A stretch of DNA of 62,465 bases, from positions 1 to 62,465 of the forward strand of contig JBGTIZ010000183.1 in the NCBI GenBank assembly GCA_041745395.1. The letters run 5' to 3'. Under the pieces are notes generated by a model, which did no database searches, was not told where the DNA came from, and saw only the letters and a list, made by a program, of their open reading frames with translations. The stretch is from Candidatus Promineifilaceae bacterium. Lineage in GTDB: Bacteria > Chloroflexota > Anaerolineae > Promineifilales > Promineifilaceae. Positions 33,108 through 62,259 of the stretch are shown here, one piece after another; positions within the stretch are counted from its first letter, which is position 1; each line of letters begins with the position of its first letter. The position numbers and the translations under genes were made by a program.

Positions 33108-36100
33108 CAAATCCTTCTTCCACGGCGGCGACATAGCTGGTCTGGATGCGCAACTCGACTATATCGAAAATTTGGGCATCACCGCCCTGTGGTTAACCCC
33201 AGTCTTTGAAAACCGTCCTACTCAACAAGATGGCTCCACCAGCTTTGGCATTGGTGGGGCGTATCATGGGTATTGGATCCAAGACTTTGAAGGGATTGAC
33301 CCCCATCTGGGCACAGAGCAAGAGGTGATTGACTTCATATCCGCCGCCCACGTGCGGGGAATCAAAGTTTTCTTTGACATTGTGGCGAACCACACGGCCG
33401 ATTACATCATCTACGCCGAAGGTCAATACAGCTACCGCGACAAAGAGACTTACCCCTTCCGCGATGCTGATGGCAACCCGTTTGACGATCTCGATTACGT
33501 CAACGACCCCAACTTCCCCGCGCTGGATCCCGCTATCAGCTTCCCCTATACCCCCGTCTTTGCCGACCCCAACCACGCCACGATTAAAAATCCTGCTTGG
33601 CTGAATGATGTCACCCTGTATCACAATCGCGGGGACTCCACCTTTGCTGGTGAAAGCTCGCTTTACGGGGATTTCTTCGGCTTGGATGACCTCTTCACGG
33701 CGCATCCCGACGTGGTGGCGGGCTTTACTGATATTTTCACCAACGCCATCGCTACCTATGACATTGATGGGTATCGCGTAGACACGGTAAAGCATGTCAA
33801 CCCTGAATTTTGGGAAGCGTTGGTTCCCGTGGTGATGGATTACGCCGCCAATAACGGCAAGCCGGACTTCTTCATCTTTGGGGAAGTGTTTGACGGCAAC
33901 CCGGCCGTGTTGAGCCAATTCACCACTGATTTGCCCTTCCCCAGCGTGCTGGACTTTGGGCTACACGGCACGGCCAACAGCTTTGCCGCTAATAACTCGG
34001 CCACCAATAATCTGCGCGATTTCTTTGCCAATGATGACTATTTCACCGATGCGGACAGCAATGCCTATCTGCTGGCGAACTTCATCAGTAACCATGATGT
34101 CGGCCGTATCGGGCGCAACATTGTCAACAGCAACGGCTCTGAAATGGATGCAAGCTGGGTGAGTCGCTCTGAACTTGGTCACGCGCTGATGTATTTTGCG
34201 CGTGGGTTCCCCGTGGTGTACTACGGGGATGAGCAAGGCTTCACGGGCGGCGGCGGCGACAAAGATGCTCGCCAAGATATGTTCGCTAGCCAAGTCACCG
34301 AGTATGACCTGTATGAAATGATTGGGACGAATGCCCAATATAGTGATAGCAACTTTGACGAAACGCACCCGCTGTTTGGGACGTTGGCGGATTATGCGGC
34401 TGTCTTGAATAACCATGAAGCTCTGCGGCGTGGGGCGCAAATCCATCGCTATAGCCAAGCGTCGGCTGGGGTGTATGCGTTCTCCCGCATTGACCGGGTG
34501 GAGCAGGTGGAGTATCTGGTGTTGTTGAATAACAGCACCAGCAATGCGGCTGTCAGCGTGCCGACTTGGTCGTTGAGTACGGGTTTCACGGCCGTGTATC
34601 CCCTCTCTGCCGCCCCCATCACCGCTGGCGCCAACGGTGACGTGTCCGTGACCGTGCCCGCCCTCGGCGTGCAAATCTACCGCGCCGACGCCATTTTGCC
34701 CGCCAGCGTCACTCCTCCCGCTAACCCCGTCTTCAACACCTTGGGCAATAACCTGCTGGCTAACCAACAGGTTTCCGGCCGTGTTGAAGTCGGCGTGGCC
34801 CTCGACGCAGACCGCTTCGCCGAAGTGACCTTCGCCGTTAGCATTGACGGGGCGCCCTACGAAGTGATTGGGACAGATACCAATGCTCCCTATCGCGTCT
34901 TTTACGACGTGAGTCATTTACCCGCTGACACGACGCTCCGCTTCAAAGCGACCGTCCATGACTTGCTCTATCCCGACCCAGAATATGGTGTCGCTACCAT
35001 CTCCGTCGTGACCACCGAGCCAGTCGAACCTGGCTCAGGTGACTACTTTATCTTCCATTACTATCGCCCCGACGGGGACTATGGCGACTTCAGTAGCAAC
35101 GACTACAACGACTTCTGGGGTCTTCACCTCTGGGGCGACGCCATTGACCCCACCGAACTACCCACATGGACAGAGCCGCGCAAATTCACAGGCTTTGACA
35201 GCTACGGCGCGTTCTTGGCCGTCCGTTTGGTGGATGACACTCAGAATGTGAACTTTATTATTCACCGAGGTGATACCAAAGACACGGATGCGGATAGATC
35301 GTTTGACCCGGCCGTGGCTAAAGAAATTTGGCTGGTCGCTGGCGACCCGAACGCCTACACCTCTGCCGCCGAAGCGTTGCAACAAACCCTCGTCCATTAC
35401 CAACGGGACGATGATGATTACACCGATTGGGGCCTGCACCTCTGGCAAGATGGCAATCCATCATTGACCAATTGGCCAGACCGCCACATGGTAGACAGCT
35501 ACGACGATTTTGGCGCAGTCTACTCCATCACCGTGGCGCAGTACCCCACCTTGACTTTGAGCAGTGGCCTCAACTTCATCATTCATGACGGCATGGGAAC
35601 ACAAGACCCCACCCGTACCTACACCCCCACCGTGAACTACGAAGTGTGGGTGCGCGACGGCCGTGATAATTTGTACACTCAAGAAGGGGCGGCCATTGGT
35701 GATTTCGGTGTAGCGACCATCCATTACCATCGTTGCTTTGGCGACTATGGGGATTACGACAGCACCGACTACAACGACTTCTGGGGCTTGCACACCTGGG
35801 GCGCGGCTCCCGACCCCGGTTGGACAACGCCTCGCAAGCCCGCTGGCACAGATGAATTTGGCGTTTATTTTGAAGTGACGCTCACCAATGATAGTGGCAC
35901 TTTGAACTACATCCTGCATCGGGGCGACGAAAAAGATGTTGACCCCGACCAATCGCTCAACCTGAACAGTACGGGGTATGAAATTTGGATTGTTCAGAAT
36001 GATGACGGCTTCCAGCACGTCTCCCCCGCTATTGCTCACAACGTGATTGGGCAAGTGTGTGGTGGTGCAGGCGATATTACCCAGCAACGCGCTTACTGGC

Positions 36101-39100
36101 TCAGTGAAGAGACAATCGGTTGGCAAGCATCGGCTGTGCCTGCTGACATTGCCGAGTATCGTCTTTACTACGATGCCAACGCCGGCATTACGCTCGGCCA
36201 AGCAGGTATCAGCGGTGGTAGCTACATCACCCTGACTCTTGACCCCGGTGGCCTAAGTGGCGACATTGTGGCGAAGTTCCCCCATTTGACGGGCTTGCCC
36301 GCTTTGGCGATTGGGGCGGCTGATTTGGCTCTTGTGCCCGATATGCTCAAGGGGCAATTTGTTATCGCCGCGTATGATAGTGGGGGCGAGGTACTCGACG
36401 CGACTGGGTTGCAAATTCCAGGCGTGTTGGATGACCTGTACACCTACACTGGTGAGTTAGGGGTGGTCTGGGATGGCACAACACCCAGCGTCCATTTGTG
36501 GGCGCCCACCGCGCAAAATGTGACCTTCCATCTGTTTGCCGACAGCGCTCCCGCGACGACCAGCACGACGTATACCATGACGTGGGATGCGGCGACAGGC
36601 GTCTGGAGCGTGATGGGTGAACCAAGTTGGGATGAGCAATATTACCTGTTCGAGATTGATGTGTTTGCGCCCACCACGGGCAACATCGAAACGAACATTG
36701 TGACTGACCCATATGCCGTCAGCTTGGCGATGAACAGCACGCGGAGCCAAATCCTAGATTTGAGCGATGCAGACTGGGCGCCTGCGGGTTGGGACACGCT
36801 GACCAAGCCTGAATTGGTCGGTCCGCAAGACATCTCGATTTACGAAGTGCACGTGCGTGACTTCAGCGCGTTTGATGAAAGCGTGCCCGCAGATGAGCGC
36901 GGCACGTTCAAGGCGTTTACCTACACGGATACCAACGGGATGAGCCATCTGCTCAGCCTAGCGGATGCGGGTATGACCCATCTGCATCTGTTGCCTGTGT
37001 TTGATATTGCCACGATTGATGAAGACAAAACGACGTGGCAGACGCCAGATTATGACCTGTTAGCCAGCTTGCCGCCGACCTCGACGCAACAGCAGGCGGC
37101 TATTAACGCCATTCGGGATATGGATGCGTTTAACTGGGGATATGATCCCTTCCATTACAACGTGCCCGAAGGTAGCTACAGCACTGACCCAGACGGCCCG
37201 ACGCGCATCATTGAGTTCCGCGAGATGGTGCAAGCGGTGAATGAACAAGGTCTGCGGCTGGTGGTGGACGTGGTTTATAACCATACCAACGCTGGTGGTC
37301 AGGCAGAGAAATCTGTCTTGGATAAAGTAGTGCCTGGGTATTACCATCGCCTAAATGCCATTGGGCAGATTGAAAGCAGTACCTGCTGTGCCAACACGGC
37401 CACGGAACACGCGATGATGGAGAAACTCATGGTTGACTCCATTGTCTTGTGGGCGGTTCAGTACAAGGTGGATTCCTTCCGCTTTGACCTGATGGGCCAC
37501 CATATGAAGAGCAACATGCTGGCCGTGCGCGACGCGCTGGATGCGCTGACCCTTGAGGAAGATGGCGTAGATGGTTCGGCTATCTATGTGTATGGCGAGG
37601 GTTGGAACTTTGGCGAGGTGGAGAATGATGCGCGGGGCGTGAACGCGACCCAACTGAACATGGCGGATACGGGGATTGGCACGTTTAGTGACCGTCTGCG
37701 TGACGCGGTGCGCGGTGGTGGCCCCTTCGACAATGGGGAAACTCTGAAGACGCAAGGGTTTGCCAATGGGTTGTTCTATGACCCGAATGATTTGAATCAG
37801 CCCGATGCTTTGGCGCGGCTGTTGCTGTACAGTGACCAGATTCGGGTCGGTATGGCTGGCAATCTGGCTGATTATGAGTTTGTGGACCGTTCAGGCAATA
37901 CGGTGACGGGGGCTGACGTGGATTACAACGGCCAACCAGCGGGGTATACCGCACGGCCGTATGAAGCGATCACCTACATCTCCAAGCATGACAACCAGAC
38001 TCTGTATGACATCAACGTGTATGGCCTGCCGGCTGAAACGACGATGGATGAGCGGGTGCGGGCGCAGATTGTCGGTCTTAGCACCGTCGCTCTGGGTCAG
38101 GGTGTGCCCTTCTTCCACGCGGGGAGCGAGATGTTGCGCTCCAAGTCGCTAGACCGGGATAGTTATAACTCGGGCGACTGGTTCAATCGCTTGGACTACA
38201 CCTACCAGACCAACAATTTTGGCGTTGGTTTGCCGATTGCGGAAAAGAATGAGGAAAATTGGCCGATTATGGTTCCGTACTTGGCTGACCCCGCGCTCGT
38301 AGCGGAGGAGATTGCCATTGTGCGGACGACGGCCATGTTTGAGGAGCTGTTGCAGGTGCGGTATAGCTCGCCGCTGTTCCGACTGGGCACGGCCGCGCTG
38401 GTGCAAGAGCGAGTGGCGTTCCACAACACGGGGCCAAGCCAGTTGCCGGGCCTGCTGGTGATGAGCATCAGCGATATGGTTGGGGCGGATTTAGACCCGA
38501 ATCATGAGTTGATTGTGGCGCTGATTAATGCCAATGATGAGGCGCAGACGTTTACGGAAGCGGCTTTGATTGGGGCGGATTTGGTTCTGCATCCTGTGTT
38601 GGCTGATTCGATAGACGACGTGGTGAAGACGACGACGTTTAACGAAACGACTGGTTCGTTTGTGGTTCCGGGTCGCACCACGGCCGTGTTTGTGGTCGAG
38701 CAAGAGCAACTGCCTCAAGCGACGTTGGTTGTCACGGAAGACGGCGTGGCTTTGGTGAATGGGGTCAGCGAGATTGACTTCATGACCACCGAGGTTGGGT
38801 CGGCTGTGGCGAAAACGTTCACCGTGTCGAATCAAGGCACGGCCGTGTTGAACCTCTCTAACCTAACGGTTACGGGGACTGGTTTCAGCATGGTGAACTT
38901 TGGCAACACGGCCGTGGCTCCTGGTGAATCTACCACCTTCCAAGTCGTGGTAGACGCCGACGCGGCGGGTGCGTACAGCGCTACCGTCAGCTTTGCCCAT
39001 AACGGCGCGACAACGGCCACACCCTTCACCTTCACCGTCATGGGTGAGGTTGAAGAACTGCCCGTGACTGAGTATTACTCATTCTCCCCGATAGTTATTC

Positions 39101-39114
39101 ACACGGCTCCGTAA
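33010..39114 (+). CDS. Amylopullulanase main body: GH13 alpha-amylase domain, three PUD/CBM41-like modules, GH13 pullulanase domain, choice-of-anchor-D-like Ig domain, C-terminal tail
   Basis: Amylase regions: FFDIVANHTA, GYRVDTVKHV, FIFGEVF, FISNHDVGR. PUD-like modules: IFHYYRPDGDYGD...FWGLHLWG, LVHYQRDDDDYTDWGLHLWQ, TIHYHRCFGDYGD...FWGLHTWG. Pullulanase regions: NWGYDPFHYNVPEGSY, VVDVVYNHT, SFRFDLMGHH, YGEGWNFGE, YISKHDNQT. The real reading frame is entered from 32232..33107 near 33060-33080; the track's N-terminus MSCLTGLKMATP is an artefact. Confidence 0.85.
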   Translation: MSCLTGLKMATPAITKAPPPAEPLTETGYLPNDKSFFHGGDIAGLDAQLDYIENLGITALWLTPVFENRPTQQDGSTSFGIGGAYHGYWIQDFEGIDPHLGTEQEVIDFISAAHVRGIKVFFDIVANHTADYIIYAEGQYSYRDKETYPFRDADGNPFDDLDYVNDPNFPALDPAISFPYTPVFADPNHATIKNPAWLNDVTLYHNRGDSTFAGESSLYGDFFGLDDLFTAHPDVVAGFTDIFTNAIATYDIDGYRVDTVKHVNPEFWEALVPVVMDYAANNGKPDFFIFGEVFDGNPAVLSQFTTDLPFPSVLDFGLHGTANSFAANNSATNNLRDFFANDDYFTDADSNAYLLANFISNHDVGRIGRNIVNSNGSEMDASWVSRSELGHALMYFARGFPVVYYGDEQGFTGGGGDKDARQDMFASQVTEYDLYEMIGTNAQYSDSNFDETHPLFGTLADYAAVLNNHEALRRGAQIHRYSQASAGVYAFSRIDRVEQVEYLVLLNNSTSNAAVSVPTWSLSTGFTAVYPLSAAPITAGANGDVSVTVPALGVQIYRADAILPASVTPPANPVFNTLGNNLLANQQVSGRVEVGVALDADRFAEVTFAVSIDGAPYEVIGTDTNAPYRVFYDVSHLPADTTLRFKATVHDLLYPDPEYGVATISVVTTEPVEPGSGDYFIFHYYRPDGDYGDFSSNDYNDFWGLHLWGDAIDPTELPTWTEPRKFTGFDSYGAFLAVRLVDDTQNVNFIIHRGDTKDTDADRSFDPAVAKEIWLVAGDPNAYTSAAEALQQTLVHYQRDDDDYTDWGLHLWQDGNPSLTNWPDRHMVDSYDDFGAVYSITVAQYPTLTLSSGLNFIIHDGMGTQDPTRTYTPTVNYEVWVRDGRDNLYTQEGAAIGDFGVATIHYHRCFGDYGDYDSTDYNDFWGLHTWGAAPDPGWTTPRKPAGTDEFGVYFEVTLTNDSGTLNYILHRGDEKDVDPDQSLNLNSTGYEIWIVQNDDGFQHVSPAIAHNVIGQVCGGAGDITQQRAYWLSEETIGWQASAVPADIAEYRLYYDANAGITLGQAGISGGSYITLTLDPGGLSGDIVAKFPHLTGLPALAIGAADLALVPDMLKGQFVIAAYDSGGEVLDATGLQIPGVLDDLYTYTGELGVVWDGTTPSVHLWAPTAQNVTFHLFADSAPATTSTTYTMTWDAATGVWSVMGEPSWDEQYYLFEIDVFAPTTGNIETNIVTDPYAVSLAMNSTRSQILDLSDADWAPAGWDTLTKPELVGPQDISIYEVHVRDFSAFDESVPADERGTFKAFTYTDTNGMSHLLSLADAGMTHLHLLPVFDIATIDEDKTTWQTPDYDLLASLPPTSTQQQAAINAIRDMDAFNWGYDPFHYNVPEGSYSTDPDGPTRIIEFREMVQAVNEQGLRLVVDVVYNHTNAGGQAEKSVLDKVVPGYYHRLNAIGQIESSTCCANTATEHAMMEKLMVDSIVLWAVQYKVDSFRFDLMGHHMKSNMLAVRDALDALTLEEDGVDGSAIYVYGEGWNFGEVENDARGVNATQLNMADTGIGTFSDRLRDAVRGGGPFDNGETLKTQGFANGLFYDPNDLNQPDALARLLLYSDQIRVGMAGNLADYEFVDRSGNTVTGADVDYNGQPAGYTARPYEAITYISKHDNQTLYDINVYGLPAETTMDERVRAQIVGLSTVALGQGVPFFHAGSEMLRSKSLDRDSYNSGDWFNRLDYTYQTNNFGVGLPIAEKNEENWPIMVPYLADPALVAEEIAIVRTTAMFEELLQVRYSSPLFRLGTAALVQERVAFHNTGPSQLPGLLVMSISDMVGADLDPNHELIVALINANDEAQTFTEAALIGADLVLHPVLADSIDDVVKTTTFNETTGSFVVPGRTTAVFVVEQEQLPQATLVVTEDGVALVNGVSEIDFMTTEVGSAVAKTFTVSNQGTAVLNLSNLTVTGTGFSMVNFGNTAVAPGESTTFQVVVDADAAGAYSATVSFAHNGATTATPFTFTVMGEVEELPVTEYYSFSPIVIHTAP

Positions 39115-50953: not shown

Positions 50954-53900
50954 ATGAGAAAACCAAATAGGGCTAAATCAGCTTCCTATTTCTCTGTATT
51001 TATGGCTATGCTAGCCGTCTTTGGCCTTGTAGTGGCCGTCAGCACCTCTGTCAGCTTTGCCCAACAGGCCGATGCTGAAAAACTAGTGTCAACTGATGCC
51101 AACAATGAAGCGGCCATTTACCTTGTTCGTTTACAAGACCCTCCCCTTGCTTTATATCGTGGTGGTATCAACGGGATTGCCCCGACAAGCCCTGTTGTCA
51201 ACAATACCCGTGGTCTTGACCTAAACAGCCAAGCTGTTCAAGCTTACTCTGACCATTTGGCTACTCAACGAGCCAATTTTGTCACAGAAGCTCAAACGTT
51301 GCTTGGTCGTAACCTTGACGTTGTTTATGAGTACGCCGTAGCTAACAATGGGATGGCTGTTTGGCTTACGCCCACAGAAGCGGCTCAAGTAGCCAAAATC
51401 GAAGGAGTTATTTTCATCAAACAAGATGAAGAAAAGGAACTCCATACCGATAATGGCCCCGAGTGGATTGGCGCACCAGTCGTGTGGGATGGATCTAGCG
51501 TCCCCAGCGGCATGGGCACATTTGGCGAAGGCACTGTGGTCGGTATCATTGATACAGGCATCAACTACAGTAACCCATCCTTTGCCGAAGTTGGCCCTAT
51601 TGATGGGTATGTGCATACCAACCCCCTAGGCAGTGGCAACTTTATTGGTAACTGTGCCCCCAGTGGTGGATATGAGAGCTACTGTAATGACAAGCTGATT
51701 GGTGTACGCGGTTATGCTACCGTGAATGGCGGTGACCCCGTTGACTATAATGGGCATGGCTCCCATGTGGGAGGCACGGCCGCTGGTAACTTTGTTACGG
51801 CAACGGTTTCTGCCCCTACCACCACCATTACGCGCACCATCTCTGGTGTGGCTCCCCATGCCAACCTCATCGCCTACAGCGCATGTTGTACAGAGTCTGC
51901 TTTGACAGCCGCTATTGAAGACATCGTCCTTGACTATGCCACCTTGTTAGCCGCCGACTCCAGCGTGCGCATGAGTGTCAACTACTCCATTGGTAGTCCG
52001 GGCGCAACACCCGATATGTGGAATGATTTTGACACGGCTGGCTACCTTGCCGCACGTGATGCTGGTATTTTTGTGGCTACCTCGGCGGGTAACAATGGCC
52101 CCGGAGCCAGTACTGTCGGCTCACCTGCAGATGCGCCGTGGTTGACTTCCGTTGGTAACTCTACACATAACCGCGTTTGGTCTAACAACTTAATTGATAT
52201 GAGTGGTGGTGATACAGCCGCTCCTGCCAATATTAGTGGTAAAGGCCTTACCAGTGGTTATGGCTCTGCAGATATCGTTTATGCGGGTGATTTCCCCTCA
52301 GGTTCGACCTCAACACCGCAATTGTGCGGTGTGGGTACCATTGGTTCTTTCATCTCGCCGTGGCCTGCGGGAACATTCAACGGTGAAATCGTTGTCTGTG
52401 ACCGTGGCACTTACGGTCGGGTTGAAATGGGTGCCAACGTCTTGGCCGCTGGTGCTGGTGGTTATGTGTTAGCAAACCATGCCGCTGCTGGCAACGCTTT
52501 GGTTGGTGACGCCCATGAATTACCTGGTGTCCACATCACTTATGCTGACGGTGTGGTATTGAAAGCGTGGTTGGCTTCTGGTACGGGTCATATGGCTACC
52601 ATTACTGGCTCAACAATCAATGAAGACCCCAGTAATGGCGATATTATGTCCTCTAGCAGTTCCCGCGGTCCAAATCGCGCTCTGCCTGATATTATTTCGC
52701 CCAATGTAACTGCACCAGGAACTGATATTTTGGCACCCTATGGCGTCAATAATGCTATCGCCTGGGATATGATTAGTGGTACCTCGATGGCTAGTCCCCA
52801 TGTAGCTGGTGCCGCCGCGTTGCTCATGGCGACTTATCCTGACTGGACGCCAGCCCAAGTGCAATCGGCATTAATGCTAACAGCATGGCAAGACATGCTG
52901 AAAGAAGATGGTGCGACCCCAGCCGATCCCTTTGATATGGGCTCGGGGCGGATTGACTTGAATGTGGCCGCTCTGACAGGCTTGGTCATGGATGAAACAA
53001 CGGCCAACTACGAAAATGCTAATCCTGCCATCGGTGGCGACCCTAAAACACTCAACTTACCGAGTATGGGTAATGCCAGTTGTGTGGGGCAATGTAGTTG
53101 GACGCGCTCCTTCCAGAGTGTTTTGTCTACCCCCGCGACCTATACCATTACTTTTGATGTGCCCGTTTCTATGACCATGACGGCCAGCCCTGCTGTTTTC
53201 ACCATTAACCCCGGTGCGACGCAGGTGGTTGAGTTCACGGCCAATGTGTCTGACTTGCCGGTAAACGTACACGCCTTTGGTACGGTTGTGTTAGAGACAG
53301 ATGCCTCCCATAGCTTGCCTCTCCCACCGGGCGTTGATTTTGTGGAGCTAGGTGAAGCTTATGATCGTGCTGATGCATGGACCCAAAAAACCCATGACAT
53401 AAGTGCTTATGCCAATCAAGAGGTGTGTTTCGCCTTCCGCCACGAAGGAAGTGATAGTCATTCATGGCGTATAGATGACATTTTGGTTACGTCTGATTCG
53501 GGAACACACCTTGATGAGTCGTTTGATGATACAACTTTCCCGCCCACAGGTTGGGCATACTATCAGTTAGGAAACAACCCGCAACGGTCATGGGTTCGGA
53601 GTGTGACAACGCCCAATACGGCTCCTGCGGCCGCCTTCTACAATTGGAATAATGCCTCAAACCATGATGATGGCTGGTTGGTTACTCCACCACTCACTTT
53701 GGGTGATAACCCCGAATTGACCTACTTTGACCGTGTGGGCTTCCTGTCATTCTATACCTATAGTGGTGTGTGGATTTCTACAGGTAGTTGCGACCCATCG
53801 CCAATACCAGGAGTTGAGGCAGTCGATAACCACCTCCCAGTTATGGTTGTGCCAACTGCGGCTATCCTGCCTAGTGCAGTTTCTATTGAAACGATGTTCC

Positions 53901-56245
53901 GTACTGGTTCAGTGGATGTGACGGATCTGATAGCTGGTGAGGAAATCACCGACCTGACCGTCGAATACGGTGGTCTTTTTGCCGCACAGATGGTGGAAGA
54001 AGAATTAAACCAAGACCCTACCCGCAATGATCCCTATAACAACTTGGCGGAAGTCTTCTATATGACCGTCACTGTCCCTGCGGATACGGTGCGTTTGATA
54101 GCGGAAATTCTCGAGTCTGAAGCACCAGACCTTGACCTGTTTGTCGGTACGGGTGATACGCCTAGTGCCGCAACGGAAGAATGTTTTGGTGCGACCGCTT
54201 CTTGGAATGAGTATTGTGCCATTGAGAATCCTGCCCCCGGGACATGGTGGATCTTGGTACAAAATTGGGGTGGTTCAGCTAACCAACCCGACGCCTTTAC
54301 TTTGGCTGGGGCAGTTGTGACGGATATGGACGCGGGCAACATGACGGTTGATGGCCCCGCCACAGTCGCTCCTGGCACGCCCTTCGACCTAACCGTCAAC
54401 TGGGATGAACCAGCTTTGATGGTTGGCGAAAAGTGGTATGGTTTCTTCACCCTTGGTACGGATGCTGGCAACCCCGGCAATCTCGGTACTGTATGGGTAG
54501 ATTTGCTGTACACTGGAGCGGCCACCGCAAGTGTAGACCCCACTGTTACCAACTCCCAGACCGTAGGTATGGTGATGACCGGTACACTGCACATTACCAA
54601 CACGGGTGATGTGCCGTTGACGTGGAACATTTCGGAAGAGGCCCCTGCCCCGGCAATGGCGGTTGCGCCAGCTAGCGCACCTGCTTTTGTGCCCGATATG
54701 GCTCGCTTGACTGGCCTGACGGCGGAAGCAAACGTGCCCGCTGTAGCGACAGCCCCCCGCACCATAAACAGTACGGTGTTGTGGGAGCAGGTTGTCAATG
54801 GCACAAGTGGTATCGTGTCTGACTTCTTCATTGGTAGCAATGCTGGGGCTTACAGCGCTAGCGACTTTGTGTTTGACAACCCCGCTACCATTGAGTACAT
54901 CTACACACCAGGGTTTGACAACACGAATTCACTGGCGGCACAGCCAGCCATTAACTGGGCCATTTACGCGGATGCTGGTGGTGTACCTGCTGGCAACCCT
55001 GAAGATGGCACAGGCATGGCTAGCGCGTTATGGGCCTACACCGCCCCTATGACTGGTACTGGGGTCATTCTTGATGGCAGTGAGATATCGCTAGACCTCG
55101 TAGCGGCTGGCGAACTGCTGAATCTGCCTCCGGGCACCTACTGGCTCACTGTTTACCCAGACTATAATGTCACTGGTGCGGGTGGTGCGCGCTGGAACTG
55201 GTATCAGGCGGCGCAAGTTGGCGCAGAGACACAGCTTATCTCCCCCGGAATTTTTGGGGTTAATAGCTGGACGTCGCTTAGCGCACTGGGCGTGACTTTT
55301 TCAGATACCGCTTTCCGCCTAGAAGGGACACCCGGAGCAATCTGTGACCCTGGCGACATCTCTTGGCTGAACTTACCTGTAACCAGCGGTACGCTGGCCG
55401 CAGGTGAGAGTGCGATGGTGGATGTGGTCTTTGACTCTACAGGTCTGGCGAATGGCATGTACAGTGGTCAACTCTGTGTAGCGACCAATGACCCAGTGAA
55501 TCCGACCACTTTTGTGGATGTTGAGTTGGAAGTTCTTGACGCGACTTATGGGGTTGGACTCCATGCGGCGACTATGGCGATTACCGACACTGTGGGTTCG
55601 ACCGTGACCTACACCGTCCACATTACCAACACGGGCAACATGATTGACACCTTCGACCTAGACGCAACGGGTACGTGGACAACCACCGCCCCCGCCACGA
55701 TAGAGTTGGGTGCGGGTGAAATGGGCATGTTCTACGTCACCGTCGAAATCCCCGCCGATGCGGATGATGGCGACAGCGACATGGCTACCGTCACCGCTAC
55801 CTCGCAAGGGGACAACACGGAAAGTAACAGCGTCATGCTGACGACTACGGCCGAAGTGCCTGTAGCACCTCCGACTTATGGAGTCGAACTCCATGCGGTG
55901 GTGATGGCGATTACCGACACTGTGGGTTCGACTGTTACTTACACGGTTCATGTCACCAACACGGGTAACTTCACTGATACCTTTGACATGAGCTTGGCTG
56001 GTAATGATTGGACCACCACGGCTCCGATGAGCGTGATGCTCGGCGCGGGTGAAACGGCGATGGCTTATGTCACCGTGGAGATCCCGGCTGATGCGGCTGA
56101 TGGTGACAGTGACATGGTGACTATCACCGCTACCTCGCAAGGGGATGATAGCGTGATGGCTAGCGTGATGCTGACCACTACGGCTTCTGAAGTACCAGGG
56201 CCAACTGAGTACACCAGCTACTTGCCGATTGTTGTTCGTCCGTAA
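50954..56245 (+). CDS. Giant secreted S8 (subtilisin-family) serine protease with PA insert, MAM/choice-of-anchor-J-like domain, two CARDB/NEW3-like Ig modules and a YLPIVVRP tail
   Basis: SD AAGAAGGAG. Signal peptide ...FGLVVAVSTSVSFAQQ, then an I9-like propeptide. Catalytic residues: D (VVGIIDTGIN), H (YNGHGSHVGGTAAG), S (SGTSMASPHVAGAAALL). The ~105-aa module TVTYTVH.TNTGN..DTFD...WTTTAP...AGE...YVTVEIPADA.DGDSDM.T.TATSQGD occurs twice. The protein ends PGPTEYTSYLPIVVRP. Confidence 0.9.
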   Translation: MRKPNRAKSASYFSVFMAMLAVFGLVVAVSTSVSFAQQADAEKLVSTDANNEAAIYLVRLQDPPLALYRGGINGIAPTSPVVNNTRGLDLNSQAVQAYSDHLATQRANFVTEAQTLLGRNLDVVYEYAVANNGMAVWLTPTEAAQVAKIEGVIFIKQDEEKELHTDNGPEWIGAPVVWDGSSVPSGMGTFGEGTVVGIIDTGINYSNPSFAEVGPIDGYVHTNPLGSGNFIGNCAPSGGYESYCNDKLIGVRGYATVNGGDPVDYNGHGSHVGGTAAGNFVTATVSAPTTTITRTISGVAPHANLIAYSACCTESALTAAIEDIVLDYATLLAADSSVRMSVNYSIGSPGATPDMWNDFDTAGYLAARDAGIFVATSAGNNGPGASTVGSPADAPWLTSVGNSTHNRVWSNNLIDMSGGDTAAPANISGKGLTSGYGSADIVYAGDFPSGSTSTPQLCGVGTIGSFISPWPAGTFNGEIVVCDRGTYGRVEMGANVLAAGAGGYVLANHAAAGNALVGDAHELPGVHITYADGVVLKAWLASGTGHMATITGSTINEDPSNGDIMSSSSSRGPNRALPDIISPNVTAPGTDILAPYGVNNAIAWDMISGTSMASPHVAGAAALLMATYPDWTPAQVQSALMLTAWQDMLKEDGATPADPFDMGSGRIDLNVAALTGLVMDETTANYENANPAIGGDPKTLNLPSMGNASCVGQCSWTRSFQSVLSTPATYTITFDVPVSMTMTASPAVFTINPGATQVVEFTANVSDLPVNVHAFGTVVLETDASHSLPLPPGVDFVELGEAYDRADAWTQKTHDISAYANQEVCFAFRHEGSDSHSWRIDDILVTSDSGTHLDESFDDTTFPPTGWAYYQLGNNPQRSWVRSVTTPNTAPAAAFYNWNNASNHDDGWLVTPPLTLGDNPELTYFDRVGFLSFYTYSGVWISTGSCDPSPIPGVEAVDNHLPVMVVPTAAILPSAVSIETMFRTGSVDVTDLIAGEEITDLTVEYGGLFAAQMVEEELNQDPTRNDPYNNLAEVFYMTVTVPADTVRLIAEILESEAPDLDLFVGTGDTPSAATEECFGATASWNEYCAIENPAPGTWWILVQNWGGSANQPDAFTLAGAVVTDMDAGNMTVDGPATVAPGTPFDLTVNWDEPALMVGEKWYGFFTLGTDAGNPGNLGTVWVDLLYTGAATASVDPTVTNSQTVGMVMTGTLHITNTGDVPLTWNISEEAPAPAMAVAPASAPAFVPDMARLTGLTAEANVPAVATAPRTINSTVLWEQVVNGTSGIVSDFFIGSNAGAYSASDFVFDNPATIEYIYTPGFDNTNSLAAQPAINWAIYADAGGVPAGNPEDGTGMASALWAYTAPMTGTGVILDGSEISLDLVAAGELLNLPPGTYWLTVYPDYNVTGAGGARWNWYQAAQVGAETQLISPGIFGVNSWTSLSALGVTFSDTAFRLEGTPGAICDPGDISWLNLPVTSGTLAAGESAMVDVVFDSTGLANGMYSGQLCVATNDPVNPTTFVDVELEVLDATYGVGLHAATMAITDTVGSTVTYTVHITNTGNMIDTFDLDATGTWTTTAPATIELGAGEMGMFYVTVEIPADADDGDSDMATVTATSQGDNTESNSVMLTTTAEVPVAPPTYGVELHAVVMAITDTVGSTVTYTVHVTNTGNFTDTFDMSLAGNDWTTTAPMSVMLGAGETAMAYVTVEIPADAADGDSDMVTITATSQGDDSVMASVMLTTTASEVPGPTEYTSYLPIVVRP

Positions 56246-56292
56246 GGATTGAACAGCATCAGCCCGTAGTGGCTCTACAGAAATAACCCCGA

Positions 56293-56326
56293 GGGGGTGG
56301 TTCGTTACGAACCACCCCCTTTTTTT
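56293..56326 (+). terminator. Rho-independent terminator of protease gene 1
   Basis: GGGGGTGGTTCG (56293-56304), loop TTA, CGAACCACCCCC (56308-56319), then TTTTTTT (56320-56326). Confidence 0.85.
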
Positions 56327-56659
56327 ATTCGTGCAATTAGCATGAATTTTTGTTAATACTTTGTTATACTCCCCCTTCTTTAGAGATTTTCTTGGGTATC
56401 AATTTTAGGGAGAGGGACAGCCTACATCTCTCTGTTCTGTCAACATAGCTTGCAACGATGCCCTTAACCGTTACCTTTCCTAAGGAGGTGCTTTAGCTCA
56501 TTTTTGTAACCCCACTGACGCTTCCCCCATTGGTTAATGTGTGATTGAAACACGTTAACTACCTTAAATTCGCTCTTGCTTGTCAATACACTCTAGCTTT
56601 ACCCAGCCCAGCTTTCTTGACAAGCAAATAATCGTTCGTTCAGACAAGGATTACACCCA

Positions 56660-59600
56660 ATGAAACGTTATGTATCTAATCAAACTGGTTTTGTCAGCTT
56701 TCTGCTGGCTAGCTTGCTAATGGTTGTCGCTTTGAGCCTGTGGGCTTCGGCGGCAGTAGCTGATGAACCGAAACTGGAAGAATACACGGCCGTGGTAGAG
56801 CCAGCTCTCTTGGCCGAAATAGAAGCCAACGGCAAAGCCAGTTATCTTGTTTATCTTAAAGAAACAGCCGACCTCTCCCCCGCCGTCAACATGGATTGGG
56901 AAGCGCAGGGTTGGTTTGTTTACAACACCCTCCGCGAAGTCGCTCAGCGTTCACAAGCGGACATCGTTTCACTCCTCAAAAATGATGATGTCGAATATAA
57001 AACATTCTTCATTGCCAACGCCATTCAGGTTACTTCTGGCGTAGAAACCTTAAACTCCCTTGCCGCACACCCCAGCGTGGCTTCCATCGAAGCCTCTAAA
57101 ACCTACGCTGTGCCTGAGCCAGAGCGTATTTCTCCCAATAGCCCTCTAGCCATAGAGTGGGGTGTTTCTATCATTCGTGCAGACGAAGTGTGGAACGATT
57201 TGGGCGTTTTCGGGGCTGGCATCGTGGTGGCCTCCATTGATACCGGTGTGCAATATGACCACCCCGCCCTGCAAGGCAAATACCGGGGTACACACACGGG
57301 TAGCCATGACTTCAACTTCTTTGATCCATCCAATACCTGTGGTGGCGTAGTCTGTGACAACAATAACCACGGCACGCACGTCACCGGAAGCATGCTAGGT
57401 GACGATGGCGGCGCGAACCAGATTGGTGTTGCCCCCGAGGCTATCTGGATTGCCGCCAAAGGGTGCGAAGCTAATTCCTGTAGTGATGCTTCTCTGCTTA
57501 GCTCTGCTGAGTGGATGCTGGCTCCCTGCGGTTTTGGTGATGTGCCCGGTGACCCCAGTTGTAATCCCAATATGCGTCCCCATGTCCTAAACAACTCTTG
57601 GGGCGGTGGCGGTGGCAATAGCTGGTATCAGGCGTCAGTTGATGCTTGGCGTGCGGTTAGCATTATTCCCGTCTTTTCCGCAGGCAATAGTGGCCCCGGC
57701 ACGGGCACAATTGGCTCTCCAAGTGACTACTGCAATGTGATGAGCATTGGTGGTACAAACATCAGTGATGGTATGTACCCTTCTAGTAGCCGTGGGCCTG
57801 GCGCTTTCGCTGGCTGTACCGATAAGCCTGATATTAGTGCCCCCGGTCAAGGTGTGCGCTCTTCGGTAGCTGGCAGTGGCTACGCTACGTTTAGCGGTAC
57901 TTCGATGGCCTCTCCGCATGTTTCTGGCTGTATTGCGTTGATGATGTCAGTTGCCCCCAATCTTGACTATGACCAAATTTACACGATTCTGACCACCACG
58001 GCCGAAGACCTTGGTGCGCCCGGATTTGATTACAATTACGGTAATGGTCGCATAGATTGTTATGAAGCGGTCTTGGAAGCGCAGATTTTAGCTGGGCCGA
58101 CAGGCACCATTGAAGGAACCGTGACGGCTGATGGCAGTGGTGATCCACTGGCTGGCGTGAGCGTCGTAGCGACCCTGAATGTGACCACGACCAAGAACGC
58201 GACGACCAATGGTGCGGGTGAATACACCATGACCTTCTCCCCTGAAGGCACCTACACCATGACGGCTTCTGTGTTTGGGTATTTGCCGCAAACGATCTCT
58301 GGGGTACAGGTTATTTCTGGCTCTGTTACCACCCGAGATTTTGTTTTGGAGCAGGCACCTAGCCACACGGTGAGTGGTGTCGTAACGGATGCAACCACAG
58401 GCTGGCCGCTTTATGCCTCCATCGAAATTGGTGGAGCCGATATAGACCCCATTTGGACAGACCCCGTAAATGGTAGCTACAGCATCTTGTTACCAGAAGG
58501 TATGACGTATACCTTCGCCGTTAACGCTTGGGTGGCTGGGTATGAAACCGCTATGCGCGAAGTCGGCCCGCTGACGAGCGACCAGACCGAAGATTTTGGA
58601 CTTGACGTAGACGCAGTTGCCTGTATCGCTCCAGGTTATGTTGTTTCTGGCGGTTTTCTCGAAAACTTCAACAGTGGTGCATTGCCAGCAGGCTGGGCGG
58701 TGATAGATAACCTTGGTGGTGGGCACGATTGGCGTTTTAATAACCCTGGTAATCGTGCCAACCTGACTGGTGGTACAGACGGCTTCGCCATTGTGGATAG
58801 TGACTTCTACGGCTCGGGCAACAGCCAAGATACAGAGCTATGGACACCCTCCTTGGATATGTCTGGCCAAGCCAGCGTGACGCTGGAATTCAAGTATGAT
58901 TTCCGCTGGTGGTCCGGCGGTGGTGACGAAGTTGCCAATGTGGATGTCAGCATCGATGGTGGCACCATTTGGACGAATGTTTGGACTCGCTCTGGCGCGA
59001 GTGACCGTGGTCCAAAAACGGCCGTGGTCGATATTTCCGCCATTGCCGCTAATGAGGCGGATGTTATCGTCCGTTTCCACTATTTTGATGCTACCTTTGA
59101 TTATTGGTGGCAAGTTGATGATGTCAAAATCGGTAACATCATTTGTACACCAGAAGCTGGGGGCTTGCTGGTCGGTCAGGTGTATGATGGCAACACGGCC
59201 GCGACCTTAACCGGCGCGATGGTTAATGGTGAGGAAGACAGCACGACCACGGCCGAGACACCCAATGACTCGAACGTGGATGATAGCTTCTACACCCTCT
59301 TTGTGCCCGCAGGAAGCAGTGTCGTTACAGCCAGCATGTCTGGTGGGTACGTTGACCAAGTAGAAACGGTTAACATCACCGATGGCACAACAACGGCGCA
59401 AGACTTCTATTTGGATGCGGGCTGGCTGATGGCTAACCCGACCGAGATAGAGCTTACTTTAGAGTTTGGCGACAGCGCGACTGTGCCCTTGACGCTGACC
59501 AACAGTGGCAATGTGCCCGCTAGCTACGCGCTAATGGTTGGAGCCGCCAGCGAAGATTTTGAGACGGCCTTCCCGCCAGCAGACTGGACGGTTGTTAACA

Positions 59601-62212
59601 ATGGTGGCACATGCGTGTGGCAACGCAACGATGCGTGGCCGAATGAGAACTATGCGGGTGGGGATGGCTTCTCCGCCGCCGCTGATTCTGACGCATGTGG
59701 TCAGGGCACGACAATGAACACAGAGTTGCATAGCCCAGCTCTGGATTTATCAGCGGCCTCTGTGGCCAGTCTGGAGTTCGTGGCTTCCTATTTCCACCTG
59801 GGTAGTAGCTCCTTCCGTGTCCACGTGAGCGATGATGGGGGTAGCAGTTGGGACACCCTGCTGACTTGGACGGCTAGCTCTTCAGCGCAAGGGCCGGGTA
59901 CACTCGTCTCCCTTGACCTGACGCCTTATGTGGGTTCTAGTGAGGTCATCGTTAGCTTCCATTACCAAGCTGGCTGGGATTGGTGGGTCCAAGTAGACCA
60001 AGTGCGCGTGTTGGCTGATGTCGGCCCGTGGCTGGCGTTAAACCCCAGCAATGGGAATATTGGCGACAACAGTGATGTGATGGTCGATGTTGACGTGACC
60101 ACCAGCAATTTGCCCTCGCCGGGAATTTACACGGCCGTGATTGCCGTCACTGAAGATACCCCCTACATGGTTCCCAGCATCCCCGTCACCTTAACCGTGA
60201 CCGCTTCCCCCGACTTGGCCTTCCTCGAAGGGACAGTCCACAGCACCGGTTACTGTGATGTGAATTCATTCCCCGCCGCCGGCGCGGAAGTGGTTGTTAG
60301 CAGTGGCATGGACAGTTGGACAACCTATGCTGATGGTAACGGCTATTACTCACTCTATATCAACGACAGCTACAGCCCAGTTGATATTGACGTGACCGCT
60401 CCTAACCATGAAGCGGGCAGTGCCACAGGCGTGGTCTTGGTTGGTCAACAAACCACTACCCAAGATTTCGATTTACGCTTGTTGGAACCCTGCGTTGACG
60501 TTGCCTCCGAAGAGTTCGATGTTACGCTGACGGCTGATACAGTCGCCACCTATACGTTGACCATCAATAACCATGGTGGTGCGGCCTTGAACTGGACGGT
60601 TGACGAAGCCGAAGGCACTGCGGCTGGCTTGAGTGCGGCCTCCGCGCCCGTGGTGGACACGGTGTCAATCCCCAATAATGCGGGTAATGCCGTTGATTTG
60701 GTCGGTTTACTTGGCGAGGCGTTGACCTTTAACACAGATTCCACGGCCGTGACCGGTATGGTGGTTGATTGTAATGCGGAGCCAGGCATTTTGATTACGG
60801 ATGATGGCTCGGTTGAGAATGGCTATAGTGGCAACCCAGCTACAATCAGTCAGGTTATCTTTGTAGACCGGTTCACGCCAGACAGCTACCCCGCTTCGTT
60901 TAGCGCAGTGTGTGTGGCTTTTGTTAGCCTTGGACCCAGCAGTGTGAACTTTAGCATTGTGCTGTATGCGGCGGATGGCCCCAGTGGCCAACCCGGTACC
61001 TTGTTAGGCTCTCTGCCCGCCACGGCTACCGGCTTACCCGGTGGTACTGGTGCGCCAGTTTGGCACAGCTATGACATCTCCAGCTTGGGTGTTTCCGTGG
61101 CCTCTGGGGATGTTTATATTGGGGTAACGTATGCGCCATCTAACCCGAACGTCTTCATCGCTTCGGATGAGTCTACGGGTAACCCTGTGGGCTTTGGCGG
61201 TGGCTATTGGTGGAATAACAGTGCCGCAGCTTGGGCGACGGTGCAGTCTACTTATCCTGCGTATCGCTCCTTGATGGTTCGTCCAGTCCAGGCTCTGGGC
61301 GGTTGTAACGTGCCCACCGATTTGCCGTGGTTGAGCGTCATGCCAGAGATGGGGACAACGGCCGCTGATAGTAGCGACCAAGTATCCGTCACCTTTGATA
61401 CCACGGGGCTGATGCTGGGAAGCACCTACACAGGTACATTGTGTATCAACAGCGATGACCCCATGAATCCACAGGTGACCGTGCCCGTTACTTTGACGAT
61501 TGAAGCTCCTGAGCCGGCTATCACGCTTGATGTGACGGTGGGTACGGAAGCTGGCATGTGCGGTACGGATAGCGCCATTACCGTGGTAGAAGGCACCGTG
61601 GTGTACTACTGCTACACCGTCGAAAACACGGGTAATGTGACGTTGCCCACACATGTCATCACTGACACGGTTTGGGGTCATATCGATACATTCGTGTATG
61701 ATCTGCATCCTGGTATGAGTGAATCAGTCGTCTATAGCCAAACGATGGCGACGTCGGTTGACTCCGTGGCAACGTGGGAGGCTTCCCATGCTGGCCTTGG
61801 TGTCTCCGCAATGGCGACAGATGATGTCGCGGTCATGGTGGTAACGCCGGGTGTGGTGGTAGACACGGCCGTGGACGCGCAAAGCGGCCTGGCTGGTTCT
61901 ACGGTCACCTACACGGTTCACATTACCAACACAGGCGACCTGACCGACACCTTCGACATTGCCCTGAGCAACGAGACGTGGGACACCACAGCCCCAGCTA
62001 GCGTTACGCTGGCGGCGGGTGAACACGCCATGTTTGATGTCGTGGTGACGATTGCGGCGGATGCGCAAGCGGATGACAGCGATAGTGTGCTAGTCACGGC
62101 AACCTCGCAAATGGATGACACGGTGATGGGTGGGGTAACGTTGACCACCACGGCCGTGGAACCCGAACCAACCGAATACACCAGCTACTTGCCGATTGTT
62201 GTTCGTCCGTAA
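56660..62212 (+). CDS. Giant secreted S8 serine protease, paralogue (CarboxypepD_reg-like domains, MAM/choice-of-anchor-J-like domains, one CARDB/NEW3-like module, identical YLPIVVRP tail)
   Basis: Signal peptide MKRYVSNQTGFVSFLLASLLMVVALSLWASAAVA. Catalytic residues: D (VVASIDTGVQ), H (NNHGTHVTGSM), S (SGTSMASPHVSGCIALM). GTIEGTVTADGSGDPLAGVSVVA is the regulatory-like beta sandwich. GWAVIDNLGGGHDWRF and DWTVVNNGGTCVWQRN mark the MAM-like domains. The protein ends EPEPTEYTSYLPIVVRP. Confidence 0.9.
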   Translation: MKRYVSNQTGFVSFLLASLLMVVALSLWASAAVADEPKLEEYTAVVEPALLAEIEANGKASYLVYLKETADLSPAVNMDWEAQGWFVYNTLREVAQRSQADIVSLLKNDDVEYKTFFIANAIQVTSGVETLNSLAAHPSVASIEASKTYAVPEPERISPNSPLAIEWGVSIIRADEVWNDLGVFGAGIVVASIDTGVQYDHPALQGKYRGTHTGSHDFNFFDPSNTCGGVVCDNNNHGTHVTGSMLGDDGGANQIGVAPEAIWIAAKGCEANSCSDASLLSSAEWMLAPCGFGDVPGDPSCNPNMRPHVLNNSWGGGGGNSWYQASVDAWRAVSIIPVFSAGNSGPGTGTIGSPSDYCNVMSIGGTNISDGMYPSSSRGPGAFAGCTDKPDISAPGQGVRSSVAGSGYATFSGTSMASPHVSGCIALMMSVAPNLDYDQIYTILTTTAEDLGAPGFDYNYGNGRIDCYEAVLEAQILAGPTGTIEGTVTADGSGDPLAGVSVVATLNVTTTKNATTNGAGEYTMTFSPEGTYTMTASVFGYLPQTISGVQVISGSVTTRDFVLEQAPSHTVSGVVTDATTGWPLYASIEIGGADIDPIWTDPVNGSYSILLPEGMTYTFAVNAWVAGYETAMREVGPLTSDQTEDFGLDVDAVACIAPGYVVSGGFLENFNSGALPAGWAVIDNLGGGHDWRFNNPGNRANLTGGTDGFAIVDSDFYGSGNSQDTELWTPSLDMSGQASVTLEFKYDFRWWSGGGDEVANVDVSIDGGTIWTNVWTRSGASDRGPKTAVVDISAIAANEADVIVRFHYFDATFDYWWQVDDVKIGNIICTPEAGGLLVGQVYDGNTAATLTGAMVNGEEDSTTTAETPNDSNVDDSFYTLFVPAGSSVVTASMSGGYVDQVETVNITDGTTTAQDFYLDAGWLMANPTEIELTLEFGDSATVPLTLTNSGNVPASYALMVGAASEDFETAFPPADWTVVNNGGTCVWQRNDAWPNENYAGGDGFSAAADSDACGQGTTMNTELHSPALDLSAASVASLEFVASYFHLGSSSFRVHVSDDGGSSWDTLLTWTASSSAQGPGTLVSLDLTPYVGSSEVIVSFHYQAGWDWWVQVDQVRVLADVGPWLALNPSNGNIGDNSDVMVDVDVTTSNLPSPGIYTAVIAVTEDTPYMVPSIPVTLTVTASPDLAFLEGTVHSTGYCDVNSFPAAGAEVVVSSGMDSWTTYADGNGYYSLYINDSYSPVDIDVTAPNHEAGSATGVVLVGQQTTTQDFDLRLLEPCVDVASEEFDVTLTADTVATYTLTINNHGGAALNWTVDEAEGTAAGLSAASAPVVDTVSIPNNAGNAVDLVGLLGEALTFNTDSTAVTGMVVDCNAEPGILITDDGSVENGYSGNPATISQVIFVDRFTPDSYPASFSAVCVAFVSLGPSSVNFSIVLYAADGPSGQPGTLLGSLPATATGLPGGTGAPVWHSYDISSLGVSVASGDVYIGVTYAPSNPNVFIASDESTGNPVGFGGGYWWNNSAAAWATVQSTYPAYRSLMVRPVQALGGCNVPTDLPWLSVMPEMGTTAADSSDQVSVTFDTTGLMLGSTYTGTLCINSDDPMNPQVTVPVTLTIEAPEPAITLDVTVGTEAGMCGTDSAITVVEGTVVYYCYTVENTGNVTLPTHVITDTVWGHIDTFVYDLHPGMSESVVYSQTMATSVDSVATWEASHAGLGVSAMATDDVAVMVVTPGVVVDTAVDAQSGLAGSTVTYTVHITNTGDLTDTFDIALSNETWDTTAPASVTLAAGEHAMFDVVVTIAADAQADDSDSVLVTATSQMDDTVMGGVTLTTTAVEPEPTEYTSYLPIVVRP

Positions 62213-62259
62213 GGATTAAACAACATCAGCCCGTAGTGGCTCTACAGAAGTAACCTTGA

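Follow-up and report, generated by a model that had tools for sequence, protein, structure and literature searches.

The 62,465-nucleotide contig JBGTIZ010000183.1 of a Candidatus Promineifilaceae bacterium (Chloroflexota), analysed over its whole length and called the window below, encodes four secreted proteins that share a short peptide at the extreme C-terminus, referred to here as the tail. These are two large subtilases (proteases 1 and 2), an amylopullulanase and a right-handed beta-helix protein. The six-frame translation of the window contains 403 stop-to-stop open reading frames (ORFs) of at least 60 amino acids, and the tail motif ends these four and no others. Five matches to the core [YF][LS]P[ILV][VI] are present in the same translation, and four of them are the C-termini in question, a placement for which chance cannot account. 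All four proteins have signal-peptide-like N-termini according to a heuristic. The other approximately 30 genes of the window, as annotated with Pfam, encode cytoplasmic proteins and polytopic or anchored membrane proteins, including transporters, kinases, a giant GH94 glucan synthase-like protein, a rhomboid and an SPFH protein, and none of them has the tail. The preliminary description of this DNA had assigned the tail to four signal-peptide proteins and to no other protein of the window, and both statements hold.

Protease 1 combines an S8 peptidase domain with PA, fn3 and choice-of-anchor J domains and two FixG_C-like Ig repeats, and protease 2 contains S8, CarboxypepD_reg, choice-of-anchor J and Ig-like domains. 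Both end in PTEYTSYLPIVVRP, with stop codons at 56243-56245 and 62210-62212, respectively. The beta-helix protein contains a CSLREA-like motif (CTLRRALIEA; DGRCTLRRALIEA) and a C-terminal Ig-like domain, and its C-terminus MQAIYLPLVTR is followed by the stop codon at 30125-30127. Domains of the choice-of-anchor D, J and Q families had been described as lying upstream of the tails. Choice_anch_J is indeed present in the two proteases (50.5 and 57.1 bits, above the curated cut-off of 30). However, it is situated in the middle of the proteins, at residues 853-944 and 667-824, and choice-of-anchor D and Q were not detected among the window proteins in the model search. The Choice_anch_T model scored 33.4 bits in the window search, under its cut-off of 70.

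All four tails are present, but they do not amount to four independent observations. The last ~45 nucleotides of the two protease ORFs and ~105 nucleotides downstream of them are ~97% identical, and the coding DNA upstream of this block is ~65-70% identical. The shared block of ~150 nucleotides (56200-56350 and 62167-62320) extends over the codons of the tail, the stop codon and a strong intrinsic-terminator hairpin, and suggests that the 3' end was recently duplicated or subjected to gene conversion. Because of this near-identity at the DNA level, the two protease tails are counted as one evolutionary event. In the amylopullulanase gene, an insertion or deletion in a C-rich run (ccccgccccc) near 33055-33080 divides the coding sequence between two frames, so that the signal peptide sits in a separate ORF (32172-33107), in a frame other than that of the main part; the split is either a sequencing or assembly error or the mark of a pseudogene. 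The protein ends in TEYYSFSPIVIHTAP, with the stop codon at 39112-39114. Thus both the signal peptide and the tail ascribed to it were found, but they are separated by a frameshift, and the tail (FSPIVIH) deviates from the consensus given below at two key positions, having Ser for Leu and His for Arg/Lys.

Table 1. Features of the four tail-bearing genes in the window.
Feature	Positions	Strand	Basis
Beta-helix protein, 636 amino acids, secreted, right-handed beta-helix	28217..30127	+	translation, Pfam
Beta-helix protein, canonical tail I-Y-L-P-L-V-T-R, stop codon immediately after	30101..30124	+	translation, ORF scan
Amylopullulanase, N-terminal fragment: signal peptide (~32232-32342) and two X25 domains	32232..33107	+	translation, Pfam
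Amylopullulanase, main part: alpha-amylase, PUD, pullulanase and HYDIN/DUF1573 Ig-like domains	33010..39114	+	translation, Pfam, NCBIfam
Amylopullulanase, divergent tail S-F-S-P-I-V-I-H with trailing T-A-P	39079..39111	+	translation, consensus comparison
Protease 1, secreted subtilase, 1763 amino acids	50954..56245	+	translation, Pfam, NCBIfam
Protease 1, signal-peptide-like N-terminus MRKPNRAKSASYFSVFMAMLAVFGLVVAVSTSVSFA (cleavage site estimated)	50954..51061	+	heuristic
Protease 1, tail S-Y-L-P-I-V-V-R-P, then stop codon	56216..56242	+	translation, ORF scan
Intrinsic-terminator hairpin with T-run after protease 1, inside the ~97%-identical block	56291..56321	+	sequence comparison
Protease 2, secreted subtilase, 1850 amino acids	56660..62212	+	translation, Pfam, NCBIfam
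Protease 2, signal-peptide-like N-terminus ...FLLASLLMVVALSLWASAAVA (cleavage site estimated)	56660..56761	+	heuristic
Protease 2, tail S-Y-L-P-I-V-V-R-P, DNA identical to that of the protease 1 tail	62183..62209	+	translation, ORF scan

The tail recurs on many unrelated secreted proteins of related genomes, as the check suggested at the outset required. A consensus was derived from the best 120 homologues each of three unrelated families, namely proteins with FixG-type Ig repeats, beta-helix proteins and C25 peptidases. The query for the first family was the last 234 residues of protease 1, that is, the two FixG_C-like Ig repeats and the tail; 98 of the 120 listed homologues end in the tail, with 88 distinct heptamers, and all named sources are Chloroflexota (Anaerolineales, Ardenticatenaceae, Oscillochloridaceae, Ca. 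Chloroploca). The beta-helix protein has no similarity to this family. It has homologues with 45-92% identity in Caldilineaceae and their relatives, and 105-109 of the best 120 retain the tail. Among the listed C25 peptidases of Anaerolineae, 83-86 of 120 keep it. In the pooled set the tail is present in 260 of 360 homologues, with 240 distinct 12-mers, and has the refined consensus hydrophobic-[YF]-[LM]-P-[LIVF]-[VI]-x-[RK]-x(0-5). The first position is Ile, Val or Leu; it is followed by Tyr (79%) or Phe (19%), Leu (91%) and Pro (100%), and then by one of L/I/V/M/F, one of V/I/L, a variable residue, and Arg (67%) or Lys (33%). Position -2 is occupied by Lys or Arg in 34% of the tails. The residues trailing the final Arg/Lys are polar or proline, and their number ranges from 0 to 13, being zero in 47% of the tails, one in 26% and at most five in 97%.

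In the beta-helix protein itself many Cys, Gly and Asn positions are invariant across 98 orthologues, and the closest relative (P0121) is 92% identical. It is apparently a conserved protein or enzyme of the envelope in Caldilineaceae-like Chloroflexota.

The phylogenetic distribution of the tail was examined by scanning one genome per species (185,579 species) with a degenerate nucleotide pattern encoding I-Y-L-P-[LF]-V-x-R-x-(stop or Trp). The counts refer to the 120 loci listed and are a lower bound, the number of matches being at least 120. Submitters' names place 69 of the 120 loci in Chloroflexota, including Anaerolineae, Anaerolineales and Anaerolineaceae, Caldilineaceae, Thermoflexia and Thermoflexales, Ardenticatenaceae, Promineifilaceae, Ca. 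Hadersleviella, Chloroflexia and Roseiflexaceae; no assembly named as Dehalococcoidia or Ktedonobacteria occurs among the 120. The Chloroflexota constitute only a few per cent of bacterial species. Of the listed matches, 50 of 70 in Chloroflexota loci terminate an ORF of at least 150 amino acids, versus 6 of 47 in loci from other phyla (Fisher p = 1.8e-10), and the remaining Chloroflexota matches are mostly contig-end cuts, small ORFs or internal copies. Three of the six long-ORF matches outside Chloroflexota resemble mis-binned Chloroflexota contigs (L028, which equals L043, and L120, whose protein is 82% identical to Anaerolineae proteins). Other non-Chloroflexota matches are short random ORFs or belong to an unrelated family with internal IYLPFVWRGW. 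Thus, among the matches listed, the tail ends long ORFs almost only in Anaerolineae and Chloroflexia. This supports the restriction to one lineage proposed initially, the lineage being the filamentous Chloroflexota (Anaerolineae sensu lato together with Chloroflexia).

The association with export, also proposed for checking, is strong. By a liberal heuristic, signal-peptide-like N-termini were found in 36 of 39 N-terminally complete carriers versus 94 of 294 other genes of the same loci (odds ratio 25, Fisher p = 2e-13). The 55 carriers from the genome scan match 82 Pfam families of kinds typical of surface proteins, among them DUF11, Peptidase_C25, Beta_helix, CarboxypepD_reg, PKD, Big_5/9/13, Calx-beta, PD40, FG-GAP, NHL, LRR, TIG and S8. 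NCBIfam models (E <= 1e-4) add choice_anch_Q in five carriers, and choice_anch_B and choice_anch_Z in one each. A relaxed version of the tail, with a background of ~7e-5 per residue at internal positions, ends 4 of 281 non-seed genes in the Chloroflexota loci versus 0 of 241 in other phyla. Extrapolation from 4/281 suggests a frequency of ~1%, which would amount to some tens of tail-bearing genes in each genome. The small carrier ORFs L011, L056, L103 and L109, of ~113-135 amino acids, form a family with the pattern IGQPDAG.L.GG.Y.L.GGFW.G directly before the tail; signal-peptide-like N-termini were scored for L056 and L103.

The tail is not confined to single copies at the very end. One carrier (L035, 5174-6883, minus strand) has two tails in tandem, ...VLYLPVVMRNSSGRILIYLPLVLRR, directly before the stop codon. 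Six Chloroflexota proteins (L038, L077, L048, L087, L047, L062) contain internal copies of the full consensus, IYLPLVxR[NG]W, at domain boundaries. These copies are conserved in two orthologue pairs, L038/L077 and L048/L087, all four members of which have signal peptides. In L038/L077 the motif precedes two domains that resemble, as judged by eye without a profile search, the pre-peptidase C-terminal (PPC) type; in L048/L087 the order is signal peptide, PKD-like domain, motif and a large beta-propeller-like region. The existence of internal copies argues against recognition of a free carboxylate, and fits a docking motif or a processing site.

Six of the 55 carriers belong to a C25 peptidase family that is widespread in Anaerolineae (P0241-P0360, for instance P0246; L001, 2777-5716); the named sources among the listed homologues are Anaerolineae or unclassified Chloroflexota. 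The family scores ~200 bits against the NCBIfam model 'T9SS sortase PorU' (NF033707; T9SS, type IX secretion system), matching positions 8-734 of 1095, the equivalog cut-off being 420. Its best match by sequence in the PDB is PorU (6ZA2). The same structure is the best Foldseek match, with E = 4.5e-34 over ~1080 columns, ahead of gingipains with E = 3e-21 over ~500 columns. The alignment matches both the GHG histidine and the catalytic cysteine, and the His/Cys dyad is intact. In Bacteroidota, PorU works at the outer surface, where it removes C-terminal signals and attaches the cargo; the clan CD, to which C25 belongs, also holds the glycosylphosphatidylinositol (GPI) transamidase (C13). These properties make the C25 family a mechanistically plausible candidate partner of the tail, and the only concrete lead of this kind suggested by sequence and model comparison.

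Two observations concern the surroundings and variants of this family. One to four genes ahead of the C25 gene in Anaerolineae encode proteins ending in ...[ST][FL][ST]GL..[ST][AS]P, ~18 hydrophobic residues, and RKRK or RRRRR (L121, 2908-9701; L001, 206-2602; L014, 5452-6303; L040, 664-2253); an S8 peptidase and an LTD-domain protein are among them. These endings form a second C-terminal sorting signal, of the classical tripartite type and apparently unnamed, and the genes concerned are syntenic with that of a candidate sortase-like enzyme. Some C25 members (P0286-P0289, P0292, P0294, P0301) end in ...GYLPSGLLIAALVNFLKK... or ...AYLPIGLSVAALATLQEKLLRRRR... instead of the short tail, that is, in YLP, a stretch of 11-14 hydrophobic residues and a cluster of basic ones. 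They may be intermediates between the short tail and a tripartite signal, or may have a 3' insertion read in different frames.

The level at which selection acts can be seen from the beta-helix orthologues, where the column entropies are 0 bits for Pro, 0.6 for Leu, 0.9 for Tyr/Phe and 1.2 for Arg/Lys, as compared to 2.6-3.7 bits in the 12 residues before the tail (3.0-3.7 in the nine nearest to it). The spacer preceding the tail in these orthologues varies from 6 to more than 100 residues and includes PT-rich and poly-Gly tethers. In 50 genomic tails all synonymous options occur at each degenerate position, and TAA, TAG and TGA are all used as stop codons; thus selection acts on the peptide. 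This leaves almost no probability for the idea that the tail is a chance occurrence or the translated by-product of a 3' DNA element such as a terminator or repeat. The location of the protease tails in the near-identical block with a terminator would agree with such an origin. However, apart from the variation of codons and stops, there are 240 distinct peptides, the tail is kept between orthologues that are only 45-60% identical, and matches outside the phylum lie in short random ORFs. At the scale of the phylum this explanation is refuted by codon variation, and only the protease pair, a local duplication, still agrees with it. It is also very improbable that the tail belongs to the preceding domain as its last beta-strand or as a plug. 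The tail often follows Ig-like or PKD-like domains, but the preceding domains are highly diverse and the spacer lengths are as variable as described. Moreover, in AlphaFold2 models of the beta-helix protein and of a C25 peptidase, which are otherwise confident (mean predicted local distance difference test, pLDDT, of 92.8 and 89.4), the spacer and tail form coil, with pLDDT of 60-67 in the former and ~50 in the latter; the strand was rejected on this ground. The contrast of entropies, the codon variation and the predicted coil together show that the tail is a short linear motif, rather than a strand of the preceding domain or a side effect of a DNA element.

The tail resembles a sorting signal in every respect that is open to testing at the sequence level, and dedicated recognition is favoured for that reason. 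The carriers consist of an N-terminal signal peptide, varied extracellular domains, a freely evolving flexible spacer and the tail, the latter being a hydrophobic hexapeptide built on the invariant Pro, a variable residue, Arg or Lys, and 0-5 polar residues. This anatomy is best read as that of a lineage-specific, modular signal of Sec-exported surface or extracellular proteins, and we lean, by a modest degree, towards a signal for sorting or retention that a dedicated partner recognises. The carrier would be exported by Sec first; the disordered tail would then be bound in extended conformation by a dedicated envelope factor, and this factor would process the tail and keep the protein on the cell envelope. 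The tail would fill the niche of the LPXTG, PEP-CTERM, T9SS C-terminal domain (CTD) or GPI signals while having no membrane-spanning retention segment. Given a dedicated partner, covalent attachment coupled to cleavage, by the logic of sortase, PorU or transamidase, and non-covalent docking seem about equally probable. The final Arg/Lys and the unconstrained remainder would suit Arg/Lys-specific cleavage, or a charged residue closing off a segment bound through its hydrophobicity. A more specific proposal, that the YLPLV-R tail represents a new sorting system, peculiar to filamentous Chloroflexota, in which a dedicated envelope enzyme, possibly a PorU-like clan-CD transpeptidase, cleaves and attaches proteins, is tentative and on balance rather unlikely. 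The preliminary description had spoken of a lineage-specific export, attachment or processing tag: the lineage, the link to signal peptides and the modularity stand, and the role we infer from the architecture.

Several observations weigh against recognition by a dedicated, and especially a PorU-like, partner. The hydrophobic stretch of 6-7 residues rules out the retention logic of classical sorting signals. The PorU-like C25 gene bears the tail on its own product, and it is found in conserved synteny with proteins carrying a transmembrane segment and an RKRK signal, which may be the real substrates of the peptidase. When 432 genes, drawn from the Chloroflexota loci and the window, were clustered all against all, no recurrent partner appeared beside the tail genes; the recurrent neighbours were histidine kinases and ABC ATPases only. 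The internal copies of the motif are followed by 130-680 residues, and transpeptidation that discards everything downstream would be odd for such proteins. Finally, the heuristic used for signal peptides also counts N-terminal membrane anchors and has a background rate of 32%, and the taxon labels belong to metagenome-assembled genomes as named by their submitters.

Some of the same observations are compatible with an uncleaved tail that needs no dedicated enzyme and binds an envelope polymer, the sheath, an S-layer protein or the membrane interface non-covalently. Tolerated and conserved internal copies at domain boundaries, the tandem double tail, the basic residues flanking the hydrophobic core (Lys/Arg at position -2 and the near-invariant final Arg/Lys), the 47% of tails that stop exactly at Arg/Lys and leave nothing to be removed, and the absence of a neighbouring enzyme gene from the gene clustering all agree with such self-sufficient docking. 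On the other hand, six or seven hydrophobic residues broken by Pro should have weak membrane affinity, near-invariant Pro, Tyr/Phe and Leu over 240 distinct tails suggest a specific binding pocket rather than generic hydrophobicity, and no receptor candidate was identified; we therefore regard docking of this kind as fairly unlikely. The tail could also be just a site of proteolytic maturation, cut after Arg/Lys or within the motif by a gingipain-like C25 peptidase or a subtilase, with no effect on localisation. The conserved part always closes with Arg or Lys, while the sequel is unconstrained in length and may be a few (0-5) polar residues or entire domains; the lineage is rich in C25 peptidases that have the catalytic dyad; and the motif of L038/L077 stands before the PPC-like domains, the PPC domains of other bacteria being removed after secretion. 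However, the tails that end at Arg/Lys offer nothing to cleave, and a cleavage site does not need a hydrophobic hexapeptide held at the C-terminus, after long spacers, in ~100 unrelated architectures, which makes maturation alone improbable.

Slightly less probable still is a second step of export, in which the tail would direct proteins, after Sec, to or across an atypical outer-membrane-like layer or sheath. A layer of this type exists in Chloroflexus aggregans and 'Ca. Viridilinea', but Roseiflexus apparently has none (PMC7332563), yet a Roseiflexaceae assembly (L119) carries the tail. The confinement of the tail to filamentous classes among the listed matches, and the presence in the lineage of a structural homologue of PorU, an outer-surface enzyme of Bacteroidota, would agree with a second step. 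No translocon candidate was seen, the components of the T9SS translocon not having been searched for, and we know of no two-step secretion signal as short as the tail, which also counts against this possibility.

C-terminal sorting signals have led to sortases, exosortases, archaeosortases, rhombosortase, myxosortase and PorU. The tail does not have the membrane-spanning segment on which those systems depend, and therefore the mechanism of its recognition must differ. Wastewater sludge, sediments and hot springs all harbour abundant filamentous Chloroflexota. Peptidase activity and polysaccharide hydrolysis have been linked in situ to their cells (PMC11495043), and cryo-electron tomography has revealed the outer-membrane-like layer mentioned above, with the envelope, monoderm or bearing an atypical outer layer, still under debate (PMC7332563). 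If the more specific proposal of an enzyme that cleaves the tail and attaches the proteins were right, dozens of hydrolases and adhesins per cell would be attached to a wall polymer or to the atypical outer layer, and the tail would provide a direct molecular handle on the long-debated envelope architecture and possibly a compact surface-display tag. As a tag of the surface proteome, it would improve the prediction of localisation for thousands of metagenome-assembled genomes, permit the discovery of partners by phylogenetic profiling and make the envelope question approachable by experiment.

Among the neighbouring genes of the window, all on the minus strand, that of the GH94 giant (7621-16185) encodes a polytopic protein of 2854 amino acids that resembles a cyclic beta-1,2-glucan synthase; its domains are GH94 supersandwich, GH94 catalytic and glucoamylase-like. 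Directly upstream of this gene, and overlapping its start, is the gene of a universal stress protein (16160-17131). A trio within 18443-21420 consists of a bacterial member of the archaeo-eukaryotic release-factor family 3 (18443-19612), a short gene similar to undecaprenyl-diphosphate synthase (19866-20480) and the rhomboid protease (20755-21420). The latter was considered as an analogue of rhombosortase and rejected as generic, since it scores 42.1 bits on TIGR03902, with a cut-off of 84.

The tail was compared with the known C-terminal signals. No Pfam or NCBIfam model covers it in the four window proteins, and no curated sorting model hits these proteins at E <= 0.01. The 55 carriers match 60 NCBIfam families, the 25 most frequent of which include no sorting-domain model. 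Full-text literature searches with the motif strings and for Chloroflexi sorting systems returned no description of it, and Chloroflexi are not mentioned in Haft's myxosortase preprint. Thus the motif is undescribed within the libraries and literature searched. It resembles the tripartite signals in being located at the extreme C-terminus of signal-peptide proteins of many unrelated surface-type architectures, in its restriction to a lineage, in following tether-like spacers, in its Leu-Pro core and basic end, and in its occurrence on proteins with choice-of-anchor domains. Known pairs of such signals and enzymes are LPXTG with sortase, PEP-CTERM with exosortase, PGF-CTERM with archaeosortase, GlyGly-CTERM with rhombosortase and MYXO-CTERM with myxosortase. 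Unlike these signals, the tail has a hydrophobic run of 6-7 residues instead of a transmembrane helix of 15-20, a single basic residue, no T-G, PEP, GG or Cys signature and no match to a curated hidden Markov model, and it has internal copies. Before the basic residue, the uncharged run is only 7 residues long in the median, so that it cannot span the membrane, and it is followed by one Arg/Lys and 0-5 polar residues. This agrees with the initial claim that the tail, having no transmembrane helix and no basic cluster, is different from the known tripartite signals. As regards LPXTG in particular, Pro is followed in the 260 tails by L/I/V/F and then V/I, never by T-G; the transmembrane segment of 15-20 residues and the basic cluster are missing; and no sortase was found by Pfam annotation among the window genes.

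The T9SS CTD is likewise a C-terminal signal of Sec-exported hydrolases and adhesins, and the lineage encodes a full-length structural homologue of PorU that bears the tail as PorU bears the CTD. However, the CTD is a folded beta-sandwich of ~70-100 residues, whereas the tail is an eight-residue peptide (8-13 residues with its trailing positions), is modelled as coil and gives no match to CTD models in the window proteins, nor does a CTD model figure among the 25 most frequent NCBIfam families of the carriers. To our knowledge, the T9SS translocon is not known from Chloroflexota, its components not having been searched for here. If the PorU-like lead is right, removal by a clan-CD cysteine transamidase would follow the same logic as in the case of GPI signals, but the omega site, the polar spacer and the hydrophobic tail of 15-20 residues typical of the latter are absent from the Chloroflexota tail. 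The beta-signal of outer-membrane proteins and the tails recognised by PDZ domains (DegS, Tsp/CtpA) are also short hydrophobic C-terminal peptides of exported proteins. They need a terminal aromatic or hydrophobic residue at a constant distance from a free carboxylate, whereas the tails considered here end in Arg/Lys or polar residues at a distance of 0-13 from the motif and have internal copies. Substrates of type I secretion have no Sec signal peptides, unlike 36 of the 39 carriers. Finally, classical anchors with a transmembrane segment and RKRK are present in the same genomes as the tail, which is thus an additional system and not a replacement.

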